Assembly (NCBI RefSeq): GCF_016903815.1
Contig: NZ_CP069973.1
Direction: 5' to 3' (one strand)
Source of the DNA: Escherichia coli
GTDB lineage: Bacteria; Pseudomonadota; Gammaproteobacteria; Enterobacterales; Enterobacteriaceae
Length of the DNA: 64,000 bases
Part shown: piece by piece, positions 13,875 through 41,163 of the stretch
Layout: the number at the start of each line of letters is the position of its first letter
How positions within the stretch are numbered: position 1 is the stretch's first letter
Position numbers and translations under genes: made by a program
Notes under the pieces: generated by a model
What the model was told of the DNA's origin: nothing
The model's database searches: none
Seen by the model: only the letters and a program-made list of their open reading frames with translations

Positions 13875-15416
<1,542 letters not shown>

Positions 15417-15484
15417 CCTTAAAGAACTGTGCTTTGCAGTGCTCACACAGATTGTCTGATGAAAATGAGCAGTAAAACCTCTAC

Positions 15485-15561
<77 letters not shown>

Positions 15562-15603
15562 AATTTGCACCGCAAATTTGAAGAGGTTTTAACTACATGT
15601 TAT

Positions 15604-15679
15604 GGGGCTATAGCTCAGCTGGGAGAGCGCCTGCTTTGCACGCAGGAGGTCTGCGGTTCGATCCCGCATAGCTCCACCA
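15604..15679 (+). tRNA. alaT: tRNA-Ala (anticodon TGC) in the 16S-23S spacer
   Basis: GGGGCTATAGCTCAGCTGGGAGAGCGCCTGCTTTGCACGCAGGAGGTCTGCGGTTCGATCCCGCATAGCTCCACCA. Confidence 0.97.
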
Positions 15680-15862
15680 TCTCTGTAGTGATTAAATAAA
15701 AAATACTTCAGAGTGTACCTGCAAAGGTTCACTGCGAAGTTTTGCTCTTTAAAAATCTGGATCAAGCTGAAAATTGAAACACTGAACAATGAAAGTTGTT
15801 CGTGAGTCTCTCAAATTTTCGCAACACGATGATGAATCGAAAGAAACATCTTCGGGTTGTGA

Positions 15863-18767
<2,905 letters not shown>

Positions 18768-18859
18768 ACAACGCCGAAGGTGTTTTGGCGGATGAGAGAA
18801 GATTTTCAGCCTGATACAGATTAAATCAGAACGCAGAAGCGGTCTGATGAAACAGAATT

Positions 18860-18979
18860 TGCCTGGCGGCCTTAGCGCGGTGGTCCCACCTGACCCCATG
18901 CCGAACTCAGAAGTGAAACGCCGTAGCGCCGATGGTAGTGTGGGGTCTCCCCATGCGAGAGTAGGGAACTGCCAGGCAT
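18860..18979 (+). rRNA. rrfA: 5S ribosomal RNA, 120 nt
   Basis: TGCCTGGCGGC...GGGAACTGCCAGGCAT, the canonical E. coli 5S ends. Confidence 0.95.
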
Positions 18980-23027: not shown

Positions 23028-23654
23028 ATGAAAAAGATTTGGCTGGCGCTGGCTGGTTTAGTTTTAGCGTTTAGCGCATCGGCGGCGCAGTATGAAGATG
23101 GTAAACAGTATACTACCCTGGAAAAACCGGTAGCTGGCGCGCCGCAAGTGCTGGAGTTTTTCTCTTTCTTCTGCCCGCACTGCTATCAGTTTGAAGAAGT
23201 TCTGCATATTTCTGATAACGTGAAGAAAAAACTGCCGGAAGGCGTGAAGATGACTAAATACCACGTCAACTTCATGGGTGGTGACCTGGGCAAAGATTTG
23301 ACTCAGGCATGGGCAGTGGCGATGGCACTGGGCGTGGAAGACAAAGTCACTGTTCCGCTGTTTGAAGGCGTACAGAAAACCCAGACCATTCGTTCAGCAT
23401 CTGATATCCGCGATGTATTTATCAACGCAGGTATTAAAGGTGAAGAGTACGACGCGGCGTGGAACAGCTTCGTGGTGAAATCCCTGGTCGCTCAGCAGGA
23501 AAAAGCTGCAGCTGACGTGCAATTGCGTGGCGTTCCGGCGATGTTTGTTAACGGTAAATATCAGCTGAATCCGCAGGGTATGGATACCAGCAATATGGAT
23601 GTTTTTGTTCAGCAGTATGCTGATACTGTGAAATATCTGTCCGAGAAAAAATAA
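23028..23654 (+). CDS. dsbA: Periplasmic thiol:disulfide oxidoreductase DsbA (208 aa)
   Basis: Translation [19 protein letters not shown]... with the CPHC active site ([15 protein letters not shown]). Confidence 0.96.
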
Positions 23655-23671
23655 CTCAATGTAAATTACAT

Positions 23672-23700
23672 AAAGCCCGTGAATATTCACGGGCTTTTTT
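23672..23700 (+). terminator. dsbA rho-independent terminator (aaagcccgtgaatattcacgggctttttt)
   Basis: Stem gcccgtg/cacgggc followed by six T; the IS200-like copy A begins immediately after the T-run. Confidence 0.8.
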
Positions 23701-24413
23701 GTGCACAGAAAACCCCCAGCTAGGCTGGGGGTTCCGGAAAGCTTTCAGCTTTAAGCCAGTTATTAAAACCCCTTTTGATTTGTTAAAACACCTTGCGGTC
23801 TGGCAACTGCAAGTGTCAAACAAGAAATCAAAAGGGGGTCCCAATGGGGAACGAAAAGAGCTTAGCGCACACCCGATGGAACTGTAAATATCACATAGTT
23901 TTTGCGCCAAAATACCGAAGACAGGTGTTCTACAGAGAGAAGCGTAGAGCAATAGGCAGTATTTTGAGAAAGCTGTGTGAGTGGAAAAGTGTACGGATTC
24001 TGGAAGCTGAATGCTGTGCAGATCATATCCATATGCTTGTGGAGATCCCGCCCAAAATGAGCGTATCCGGCTTTATGGGATATCTGAAAGGGAAAAGCAG
24101 TCTGATGCTTTACGAGCAGTTTGGTGATTTGAAATTCAAATACAGGAACAGGGAGTTCTGGTGCAGAGGGTACTACGTCGATACGGTGGGTAAGAACACG
24201 GCGAAGATACAGGATTACATAAAGCACCAGCTTGAAGAGGATAAAATGGGAGAGCAGTTATCGATTCCCTATCCGGGCAGCCCGTTTACGGGCCGTAAGT
24301 AACGAAGTTGGATGCAAATGTCAGATCGTGTGCGCCTGTTAGGGCGCGGCTGGTAAGAGAGCCTTATAGGCGCATTTGAAAAACCTCCGGCTATGCCGGA
24401 GGATATTTATTTA
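23701..24413 (+). mobile_element. IS200-like element (IS200/IS605 family), copy A, about 0.71 kb
   Basis: Bounded by sequence identity to copy B (40452..41163). Left-end hairpin cccccagc-tag-gctggggg, a second structured region sequestering the tnpA RBS, and a right-end hairpin cctccggc-tat-gccggagg. The left boundary is uncertain by a few nt inside the T-run. Confidence 0.85.
23844..24302 (+). CDS. tnpA: IS200-type HUH (Y1) transposase TnpA (152 aa)
   Basis: Translation MGNEKSLAHTRWNCKYHIVFAPKYRRQVFYREKRRAIGSILRKLCEWKSVRILEAECCADHIHMLVEIPPKMSVSGFMGYLKG... with the HxH (HIHML) motif; closely matches recalled IS200/IS1541 TnpA. Confidence 0.9.
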   Translation: MGNEKSLAHTRWNCKYHIVFAPKYRRQVFYREKRRAIGSILRKLCEWKSVRILEAECCADHIHMLVEIPPKMSVSGFMGYLKGKSSLMLYEQFGDLKFKYRNREFWCRGYYVDTVGKNTAKIQDYIKHQLEEDKMGEQLSIPYPGSPFTGRK

Positions 24414-30073: not shown

Positions 30074-30220
30074 GATTCGCCTGAACATGCCCTTTTTTCG
30101 TAAGTAAGCAACATAAGCTGTCACGTTTTGTGATGGCTATTAGAAATTCCTATGCAACAACTGAAAAAAAATTACAAAAAGTGCTTTCTGAACTGAACAA
30201 AAAAGAGTAAAGTTAGTCGC

Positions 30221-30329
30221 GTAGGGTACAGAGGTAAGATGTTCTATCTTTCAGACCTTTTACTTCACGTAATCGGATTTGGCTGAATATTTTAGCCGCC
30301 CCAGTCAGTAATGACTGGGGCGTTTTTTA
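30221..30329 (+). ncRNA. spf: Spot 42 small RNA (spf), 109 nt
   Basis: GTAGGGTACAGAGGTAAGATGTTCTATCTTTCAGACCTTTTACTTCACGTAATCGGATTTGGCTGAATATTTTAGCCGCCCCAGTCAGTAATGACTGGGGCGTTTTTTA matches recalled Spot 42, including its terminator. Confidence 0.88.
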
Positions 30330-31357: not shown

Positions 31358-31600
31358 ATAGAGCGAGGACGCTAACAGGAACAATGACTCAGGATGAGGG
31401 TCAGGAGCGCCAGGAGGCGAAGACAGAGGATTGTCAGGAAGACAAACGTCCGGAGACGTAATTAAACGGAAATGGAATCAACACGGATTGTTCCGGCTAA
31501 TGGAAAAACAGGGTGTGTTGGCGGCCTGCAAGGATTGTAAGACCCGTTAAGGGTTATGAGTCAGGAAAAAAGGCGACAGAGTAATCTGTCGCCTTTTTTC
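31358..31600 (+). ncRNA. csrC: CsrC small RNA (CsrA-sequestering)
   Basis: It lies in the engB-yihI intergenic region where csrC maps in K-12, has at least a dozen GGA-containing motifs (AGGAC, CAGGAAC, CAGGATG, CAGGAGC, CAGGAGG, GAGGATT, CAGGAAG ...) and ends in the terminator aaggcgacagagtaatctgtcgccttttttc. The 5' end is approximate. Confidence 0.65.
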
Positions 31601-31668
31601 TTTGCTTGCTTTCTGTTAGATTCCGCCGCAAATCTATACTGAATAAAACGGCTAAAAGACGAACCATT

Positions 31669-38344: not shown

Positions 38345-38430
38345 TCGTGCAAAAGGGCTGCACCATGATGTGAATGTTGCACCAATATAGTGCTTCAATG
38401 GAAACATTAAGCACCATATTGGTGCAATGA
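38345..38430. promoter_or_regulatory. NtrC enhancer sites upstream of glnA (TGCACCA-N-TGGTGCA palindromes)
   Basis: Near-perfect palindrome gcaccatattggtgc at 38411-38425 plus related half-sites tgcaccaatatagtgc and tgcaccatgatg upstream. Confidence 0.75.
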
Positions 38431-38577
38431 CCTTTGGATAACCCTTTTTATGCTCCGTGAAAGCAATCACAAAGGGACTCTGCAATACTTGTTTGCGGAG
38501 GATGTTTGTGATCCTGTTTTGTAGTGCGATTAATCCGTGTACAATAACGCGCTATTTCTAATGCCTGAGGCAAAGTT

Positions 38578-40401: not shown

Positions 40402-40424
40402 TTTCGTTTTTTAGTTATAAAAAA

Positions 40425-40451
40425 CCTGCCATCGCTGGCAGGTTTTTTTTT
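40425..40451 (+). terminator. typA rho-independent terminator (cctgccatcgctggcagg plus nine T)
   Basis: Stem cctgcca/tggcagg followed by a T-run; the IS200-like copy B begins immediately after. Confidence 0.8.
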
Positions 40452-41163
40452 GTGCACAGAAAACCCCCAGCTAGGCTGGGGGTTCCGGAAAGCTTTCAGC
40501 TTTGAGCCAGTTATTAAAACCCCTTTTGATTTGTTAAAACACCTTGCGGTCTGGCAACTGCAAGTGTCAAACAAGAAATCAAAAGGGGGTCCCAATGGGG
40601 AACGAAAAGAGCTTAGCGCACACCCGATGGAACTGTAAATATCACATAGTTTTTGCGCCAAAATACCGAAGACAGGTGTTCTACAGAGAGAAGCGTAGAG
40701 CAATAGGCAGTATTTTGAGAAAGCTGTGTGAGTGGAAAAGCGTACGGATTCTGGAAGCTGAATGCTGTGCAGATCATATCCATATGCTTGTGGAGATCCC
40801 GCCCAAAATGAGCGTATCCGGGTTTATGGGATATCTGAAAGGGAAAAGCAGTCTGATGCTTTACGAGCAGTTTGGTGATTTGAAATTCAAATACAGGAAC
40901 AGGGAGTTCTGGTGCAGAGGGTACTACGTCGATACAGTGGGTAAGAACACGGCGAAGATACAGGATTACATAAAGCACCAGCTTGAAGAGGATAAAATGG
41001 GAGAGCAGTTATCGATTCCCTATCCGGGCAGCCCGTTTACGGGCCGTAAGTAACGAAGTTGGATGCAAATGTCAGATCGTGTGCGCCTGTTAGGGCGCGG
41101 CTGGTAAGAGAGCCTTATAGGCGCATTTGAAAAACCTCCGGCTATGCCGGAGGATATTTATTA
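40452..41163 (+). mobile_element. IS200-like element, copy B, same orientation as copy A
   Basis: Near-identical to 23701..24413 (only a few substitutions seen); the same terminal hairpins are present. Confidence 0.85.
40595..41053 (+). CDS. tnpA: IS200-type HUH (Y1) transposase TnpA (152 aa)
   Basis: Track ORF 40544..41053; the internal ATG gives MGNEKSLAHTRWNCKYHIVF..., with an amino-acid sequence identical to copy A. Confidence 0.9.
   Translation: MGNEKSLAHTRWNCKYHIVFAPKYRRQVFYREKRRAIGSILRKLCEWKSVRILEAECCADHIHMLVEIPPKMSVSGFMGYLKGKSSLMLYEQFGDLKFKYRNREFWCRGYYVDTVGKNTAKIQDYIKHQLEEDKMGEQLSIPYPGSPFTGRK

Follow-up and report, generated by a model that had tools for sequence, protein, structure and literature searches.

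IS200-group insertion sequences lie directly behind host terminators, probably through a preference for stem-loops with T-rich tails

Introduction

IS200 is among the most widespread and least active of the bacterial insertion sequences (IS). Its transposition is so hard to observe that, to our knowledge, no experiment has yet established its target rule. Here, we describe two copies of IS200C, an element of the IS200 group, in a stretch of 64,000 nt from Escherichia coli strain 7/2 (contig NZ_CP069973.1; this whole stretch is called the window in what follows), together with 83 non-redundant insertion sites of the clade to which these copies belong. Both elements of the window start at the end of the T-run of a Rho-independent terminator, that of dsbA or that of typA, and their relatives are placed in the same way. 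We estimate at about 0.75 the probability that these elements genuinely prefer to insert where a stem-loop is followed by a T-rich tail.

The closest described elements are IS200F of Salmonella, IS200C of E. coli, and IS1541 of Yersinia. Like the copies of the window, they are about 710 bp long, carry tnpA as their single gene, which encodes a transposase of the Y1 HUH type, have no terminal inverted repeats, and produce no target duplication. The group and the window copies also have in common a terminator hairpin at the left end, a stem-loop in the 5' untranslated region (5'UTR) that hides the Shine-Dalgarno sequence, and the art200/STnc490 region, which has been described in the literature as antisense to the tnpA 5'UTR. 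We found no difference between the element of the window itself and the isoforms of the IS200 group. Odaert and colleagues reportedly placed IS1541 copies shortly downstream of genes in 1998. The left-end hairpin of IS200 (nt 12-34) has been reported to act as a bidirectional terminator, and the expression of the element is tightly repressed (PMC4513863).

IS608 of Helicobacter pylori and ISDra2 of Deinococcus radiodurans, of the IS605 group, encode homologous TnpA proteins (structures 2a6m and 2xm3). They resemble IS200C in having subterminal hairpins on the top strand, in inserting 3' of a short target that is kept on the left flank, in carrying a tetranucleotide 5' of each hairpin (a guide in these elements, a putative one in IS200C), and in their bias for the lagging-strand template. 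Their targets are plain TTAC and TTGAT, for which no structural requirement has been reported, whereas the target of IS200C is T-rich and lies almost always beside a stem-loop. Unlike them, IS200 has no tnpB. We know of no targets established in the IS200/IS605 family other than tetra- or pentanucleotides, and of no description of a structured target mode. In IS608, the tetranucleotide 5' of each hairpin pairs with the cleavage site and, at the left end, with the target (PMC5934647).

Two other kinds of mobile elements use stem-loops as targets. Group IIC introns, like IS200C, insert just downstream of the stem-loops of terminators (or of attC sites), in the orientation of the terminated gene, and their target consists of a structure and a few nucleotides (TTGT/T). 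Unlike IS200C, they are retroelements made of a ribozyme RNA and a reverse transcriptase, without HUH transposase and unrelated in sequence. The Rfam scan of the window gave no match to group II introns, and the only open reading frame (ORF) of the element identified as a gene is the Y1 transposase. Hence, IS200C resembles group IIC introns in the choice of its target and is not one of them. The RAYT (TnpA-REP) proteins, ISPpu9, ISPpu10, and IS1397 also act on extragenic stem-loops or insert into them, and the RAYTs are Y1 HUH relatives that recognize a hairpin and a nearby cleavage site. Unlike those of IS200C, the targets of these systems are specific repeated REP sequences and not generic terminators; moreover, ISPpu9 and ISPpu10 are recombinases of the IS110 family, and RAYTs are domesticated single-copy genes with arrays of one repeated REP sequence on their flanks. 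The hairpins flanking the IS200C copies are unique and unrelated to each other, and the element is multicopy: counts that include matches to flanks and to element ends reach as many as 35-44 places per genome.

The association of the family with terminators has been noted before. [quoted passage not shown] It located terminators upstream, and outside the element, in 40.2% of 20,314 copies of the IS200 family, against at most ~7% in every other IS family, and its authors read this as a way to limit the expression of the transposase. Apart from this association, we did not find an explicit targeting of terminators by the IS200 group in the literature searched, which did not cover the older papers on IS200 and IS1541. 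Thus, the IS200C element, its internal regulatory structures, and the association with terminators at the level of the family are already known. What we add is the demonstration from empty sites that the terminators belong to the host, the exact register of the insertions, the breadth of the pattern across phyla, a reading based on a guide and on mimicry of the right end, and the tandem dimers.

The insertions of the window lie at the end of two host terminators

The terminator of dsbA (23672..23700, + strand) lies downstream of the end of the dsbA ORF, at 23654. It consists of the stem AAAGCCCGTGA / TCACGGGCTTT, a loop ATAT, and a T-run at 23695-23700, and it is kept after the insertion of copy A of the element (23701..24411, + strand). 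The terminator of typA, also known as bipA (40420..40451, + strand), has a stem CCTGCCA / TGGCAGG with an A/T extension, a loop TCGC, and a run of nine T (40443-40451), directly followed by copy B (40452..41162, + strand). Folded as single-stranded DNA, these terminators have energies of -12.4 kcal/mol (z = -7.3) for dsbA and -11.6 kcal/mol (z = -5.7) for typA. The intervals first drawn from the letters alone, 23672-24413 and 40425-41163, comprise the host hairpin and the IS, and run past the right end of the IS by 1-2 nt.

We used as references for empty sites the genome of K-12 and that of a close relative lacking IS200 (NZ_AP045791.1). Both terminators are unchanged in the empty sites of these other E. 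coli strains (L003 and L094 for typA). At dsbA, the empty site has seven T's and the occupied one has six T's, the IS, and one T. At typA, the closest empty site, that of NZ_AP045791.1, reads T9-ACCTG and the occupied one reads T9, the IS, and ACCTG. Target duplication is thus absent at both sites. Insertion took place at the last T's of the T-run, giving the junctions TT/GT...ATT/, where the slash marks the border of the IS. The unit GTGCACAG...GGATATTTATT measures 711 bp, a length fixed by the period of tandem dimers (see below). The register remains ambiguous by 0-2 nt, since the flank ends in TT and the IS in ATT. The proposal of the sequence-only reading that the elements begin at the end of the two terminator T-runs is therefore borne out by the mapping of the ends on empty sites. 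A discrepancy of G versus A at the typA junction relative to K-12 turned out to be a strain polymorphism once the closer empty site was considered. Both insertions are polymorphic in the species: among 5426 complete genomes of E. coli, 106 carry the IS at dsbA and 50 carry it at typA.

Since the hairpin and the T-run are always found directly at the left end, one might have thought that they are part of the mobile element. There is next to no chance of this, because the empty sites keep the full terminator and each site has a hairpin of its own sequence, also where the IS copies of a single genome are identical (L066-L068 and the E. coli sites). It had also been suggested that the left hairpin of the element would replace or reinforce termination for the upstream gene. 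Reinforcement stands and replacement does not: the host hairpin and its T-run are intact, and the left-end hairpin is the one reported as a bidirectional terminator. Taken alone, the window is ordinary, with two annotated and polymorphic IS200C copies and with dsbA, typA, and their terminators intact.

The same placement is found from Enterobacteria to Firmicutes

The 83 sites come from E. coli, Salmonella, Tatumella, Vibrio, Sutterella, and many Firmicutes; some analyses cover 66 sites. The more distant relatives have 66-94% identity in TnpA and were taken from contigs at one genome per species. The left ends of six loci were set manually, and degenerate or truncated copies (L005, L010, L012) were excluded. 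A look-up of the exact protein gave ten other places in E. coli, nine of which are distinct: guaA, uhpT, galU, fabF, pheP, prfH/pepD, pqqU, yccU, and kdsA. Every one of the listed places has a G+C-rich stem-loop and a T-rich tail before the junction of TT with GTGCACAG, and nine of the ten have a gene in the same orientation whose end is 36-64 bp upstream of the IS. In total, terminator placement was observed at 11/11 distinct sites of E. coli, 3/3 of Salmonella IS200F, and 8/8 distinct sites of Tatumella. Nearly all of the ~60 more distant relatives follow the same rule, whether in Vibrio, Edwardsiella, Erwinia, Budvicia, Brenneria, and Sutterella or in Oscillospiraceae, other Clostridia, Negativicutes, and Erysipelotrichaceae. 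The 83 upstream flanks all differ from one another.

The built-in terminator scan missed the host terminators of dsbA and typA on the + strand, and flagged the right end of the IS. The host terminators were overlooked because the stem was extended into the A/T tracts, which left too few T's before the IS. We therefore used our own hairpin score and the DNA energies of ViennaRNA, both with controls. A stem scoring at least 20 and ending at most 12 nt before the junction was found at 56 of 66 IS sites, compared with 0.8% of random positions, 2.0% of TTTT-ending positions, and 5.6% of intergenic TTTT-ending positions of the same loci. When the 45 nt upstream of the junction were folded, 79 of the 83 sites reached the cut-off of -6 kcal/mol (median -12.5), against 13% of the TTTT-ending controls (median -2.9; Mann-Whitney p = 8.5e-45). 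The placement next to hairpins is far beyond chance. The last four bases of the target are TTTT at 48 of the 83 sites, TGTT at 10, TCTT at 8, and TATT at 8, and at ~98% TT directly precedes the junction. The last G:C pair of the stem is 5-7 nt away from the junction at 49 of 73 sites (range 3-13). At 52 of 63 sites, the IS follows the end of an ORF of at least 90 aa in the same orientation, with a median of 55 nt between the stop codon and the IS.

The sequence-only reading had taken the placement of the two copies as a possible sign of a preference for stem-loop or T-rich single-stranded DNA. The survey of other copies upheld the terminator adjacency, and this preference is supported better than a role of the T-run alone or of selection alone. 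As 83 independent relatives share the placement, it points to a built-in target preference rather than to coincidence.

Some copies (L041, L069, L071, L111) lie behind the terminator of a tRNA gene, with the CCA of the tRNA 3' end just upstream of the hairpin. One variant of Yersinia IS1541 (P0009) was uninformative, because at each of its four places an IS21-family element interrupts its left end. In these loci of Yersinia pestis (L101-L104), an IstA/IstB element cuts IS1541 ~40 nt before the start of tnpA, and the junction between the two elements is shared by two right-hand neighborhoods (zapB; peptidase M32).

A T-run alone or selection alone explain the sites poorly

The canonical mechanism of the family would have TnpA and its guide read just TTTT, as those of IS608 read TTAC, the hairpin being incidental. 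Long T-runs are common at terminators, AAAA stands at the position of the guide, and TTTT is the commonest target tetranucleotide, all of which fits this idea. We nevertheless consider it very unlikely, since a neighboring hairpin is found at 2% of the TTTT-ending and 5.6% of the intergenic TTTT-ending positions and at 85-95% of the IS sites. Furthermore, sites with poor T-runs (ATTATT, TTAATT, and TTTGTT at L089-L091) still have strong hairpins.

Alternatively, IS200 could insert approximately anywhere, or at any TT, and only the copies behind terminators would persist, because they disrupt nothing and because read-through that would raise the expression of the transposase is blocked. This is how the preprint interprets the association at the level of the family (10.1101/2025.07.22.666184), and it agrees with the tight repression of IS200 expression (PMC4513863) and with the fact that all our data are genomic survivors. 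As the sole explanation, selection seems improbable to us. The IS abuts the T-tail at ~95% of the 83 sites, against 5.6% of intergenic TTTT-ending positions having a hairpin, whereas selection for lying anywhere downstream of a terminator would spread the insertions across the whole intergenic spacer. In E. coli, the insertions are recent and vary between strains (typA in 50 and dsbA in 106 of 5426 genomes), and yet 11/11 obey the rule. Finally, two different alleles abut exactly at one target in the dimer of L121, described below. Selection surely helps too, since sites at terminator tails are harmless and shield tnpA from read-through.

Replication and transcription

Of the 11 E. coli sites mapped to K-12, 10 have the top strand of the IS on the lagging-strand template. 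The exception is pqqU, at 1.52 Mb, in the terminus region (in K-12, oriC is at ~3.93 Mb and the terminus at ~1.6 Mb). Presumably, by analogy with its homologs of IS608 and ISDra2, the TnpA of IS200C moves the element by peel and paste, with a single-stranded circle as the intermediate that integrates into single-stranded DNA, and the orientation of these sites is consistent with such a route. It also agrees with the lagging-strand-template bias known for the IS200/IS605 family (PMC5027513).

Single-stranded DNA might also arise from transcription. The target would then be the T-tract of the non-template strand, exposed where an RNA polymerase pauses or terminates at the terminator; the hairpin would matter by halting the polymerase, and the lagging-strand template would not be the source. 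The co-orientation of the IS with the terminated gene at 52/63 sites and the coincidence of the insertion point with the region of the transcript end speak for this possibility. So does the position of many E. coli targets behind housekeeping genes that are well expressed (dsbA, typA, guaA, galU, fabF, kdsA, prc). Insertions of IS608 are also enriched in the rrn genes, which are strongly transcribed (PMC5027513). On the other hand, 10/11 sites follow replication, when the baseline for co-orientation of genes with replication in E. coli is ~55%. In addition, 6/7 sites between convergent E. coli genes put the top strand on the lagging-strand template; between such genes, either orientation follows a transcribed gene, which makes the choice relative to replication informative. 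The sample is small and gene orientation is confounded with replication, so that this pattern mildly disfavors a purely transcription-coupled origin of the single-stranded DNA. We regard that origin as unlikely.

Tandem dimers and repeated hits

An exact head-to-tail junction ...GGATATTTATT/GTGCACAG..., with 100% identity and no spacer, is present in 80 of the 5426 E. coli genomes. We examined two such dimers, each made of two full copies of 711 bp behind a host terminator. The dimer of L121 (NZ_CP076697.1) follows the lom terminator of a prophage; its copies have 8/711 differences and carry different TnpA accessions. The one of L122 (NZ_CP092500.1) follows the terminator of prc and consists of two identical copies. 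The heterogeneity of the L121 dimer suggests two separate insertions at the same nucleotide. Exact head-to-tail dimers are expected if the target survives insertion or if the right end is itself a target. The terminator of guaA is occupied both in E. coli (L084) and in Tatumella (L112), by different IS isoforms; these are independent hits on orthologous terminators.

Ends of the element and a possible mechanism

The left end of the clade is made of GT, 5-8 variable bases, AAAA, and a perfect hairpin (8-bp stem, 3-nt loop); the AAAA and the hairpin are kept in essentially all of the 66 relatives. In the window, the hairpin starts 12 nt from the left terminus. In copy A, the AAAA, a putative guide by analogy with IS608, is at 23709-23712 and the hairpin CCCCCAGC-TAG-GCTGGGGG at 23713-23731, an exact match to the pattern (fold -11.7 kcal/mol). 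The AAAA and hairpin of copy B occupy 40460..40482, with the hairpin at 40464-40482. The right end of the clade has an A-rich run (where IS608 has its guide), an 8-bp hairpin, and a 9-nt tail ending in TATT or TTTT. In copy A, it spans 24378..24411, with GAAAAA, the hairpin CCTCCGGC-TAT-GCCGGAGG (24384-24402), and the tail ATATTTATT (fold -10.0 kcal/mol); in copy B, the hairpin (41135-41153) and the same tail cover 41135..41162. Both hairpins had been recognized in the two copies from the sequence alone, and both are there. The right end was flagged as terminator-like on both strands by the consensus scan. The copy at kdsA (L093) has the tail ATATTTTTT instead of ATATTTATT, a single change of A to T that makes it end in TTTT like the commonest target.

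As the sites show, integration in this clade occurs directly 3' of a T-rich tetranucleotide (consensus TTTT, nearly always ending in TT) located ~5-10 nt past the last G:C pair of a stable stem-loop. In practice, this is where the T-tail of a Rho-independent terminator ends, on the strand carrying the T-run. As a result of the use of this strand, tnpA is co-directional with the terminated gene. For the mechanism, we propose the following scheme. The T's of the target would be read by pairing with the conserved AAAA just 5' of the left-end hairpin, and the same AAAA would likewise pair with the T's of the right-end tail, by analogy with IS608. Such pairing would explain the requirement for a T-run and not the hairpin, which is statistically the stronger feature. 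The stem-loop may favor the T-tail either by its resemblance to the own right end of the element (8-bp hairpin and 9-nt tail ending in TATT) or by holding the T-tail accessible in the single-stranded lagging-strand template. Because the right end is terminator-like, a host terminator is its natural mimic. The host terminator remains intact, the IS is shielded from read-through by two hairpins in series, and its right end re-creates a terminator-like structure. With the host target surviving, re-insertion and head-to-tail dimers are possible.

Several observations weigh against this scheme or against the preference itself. The spacing between hairpin and insertion varies from 3 to 13 nt, whereas the tail of the right end is fixed at 9 nt, which argues against a rigid recognition of the target hairpin in the manner of the right-end hairpin. 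At 60% of the sites, an A-tract lies 5' of the target hairpin, versus at 47% of 38 generic terminator-like sites; this enrichment is not significant (p = 0.23) and argues against a literal mimicry of the right end. The AAAA of the guide is invariant across the clade, leaving no covariation between guide and target to compare. Two sites (L008, L054) have a T-run without a hairpin, and two others (L039, L026) have weak hairpins. The junctions of galU and fabF show one unexplained extra T relative to K-12. Because all sites are genomic survivors, selection has contributed in part. The classical hisD984 insertion of IS200 reportedly lies inside a coding sequence.

The extra T at galU (L086) and fabF (L087), seen at the right junction by comparison with the K-12 loci L095 and L096, could be a polymorphism in the length of the T-run between strains or a variable cleavage of the right end.

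Taking these points together with the evidence above, we consider the specific mechanism of guide pairing and right-end mimicry, which is built on the analogy with IS608, about half as probable as the preference for a stem-loop with a T-tail. For the broader proposition we would put the chances a little short of even: the target of the IS200 clade would be set by structure and sequence together, as a stem-loop with a T-rich tail that mimics the right end and pairs with AAAA, and terminators on the lagging-strand template would be landing pads from Enterobacteria to Firmicutes.

Organization of the two copies and content of the window

The two copies of the window are intact and differ by five nucleotides over their 711 bp (~99.3% identity in the alignment). 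Their tnpA genes (23844..24302 in copy A and 40595..41053 in copy B, both on the + strand) encode the same intact protein of 152 aa. The protein matches the Pfam profile Y1_Tnp (PF01797) with E = 3.8e-38 and 130.7 bits (cutoff 23), and is homologous to the TnpA proteins of known structure 2ec2, 2a6m, and 2xm3. Its motifs HIH (HUH) and RGYYVDT, with the catalytic tyrosine, align with these structures. Among the longer ORFs overlapping the element, Pfam recognizes tnpA alone as a gene (listed from an upstream TTG, giving 169 aa), and there is no tnpB. The termini GTGCACAG... and ...GGATATTTATT do not form an inverted repeat, and both subterminal hairpins are on the + strand. In RefSeq, both copies are labeled under 100% matches as "IS200/IS605-like element IS200C family transposase". 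The Rfam family STnc490 (RF01405) matches both copies, at 23711..23834 in copy A (146.1 bits, E = 7.5e-30) and at 40462-40585 in copy B; the function of this region has been described (PMC4513863). Both copies are thus the known element IS200C, of the IS200 group of the IS200/IS605 family, and the identification as IS200-like elements, made from their sequence, is confirmed by Pfam, RefSeq, and Rfam alike. The STnc490 matches lie on the strand in the sense of tnpA and span the left-end hairpin and the 5'UTR stem-loop.

Elsewhere, the window contains a complete rrn operon (13875-18977) with two spacer tRNAs and a StyR-44 match in Rfam. Rfam also identified the small-RNA genes Spot 42, CsrC, and ES222, in the intervals 30211-30329, 31358-31611, and 38389-38496. 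This content of small RNAs and rrn genes fits the region of K-12 around 4.0 Mb.

Implications

For genome annotation, a terminator directly before the left end of an IS200 is DNA of the host and not of the element. A precise target rule would predict the locations of new copies and of tandem dimers, and, if true, would provide the long-missing efficient target for assays of IS200 transposition. It would also add a DNA transposon to the short list of mobile elements, group IIC introns among them, for which terminators serve as safe havens. If the target is indeed structured, this would explain why the association with terminators is specific to this family and why exact head-to-tail dimers occur. 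It would also explain how IS200, nearly dormant and almost never mutagenic, persists harmlessly and silently in genomes.

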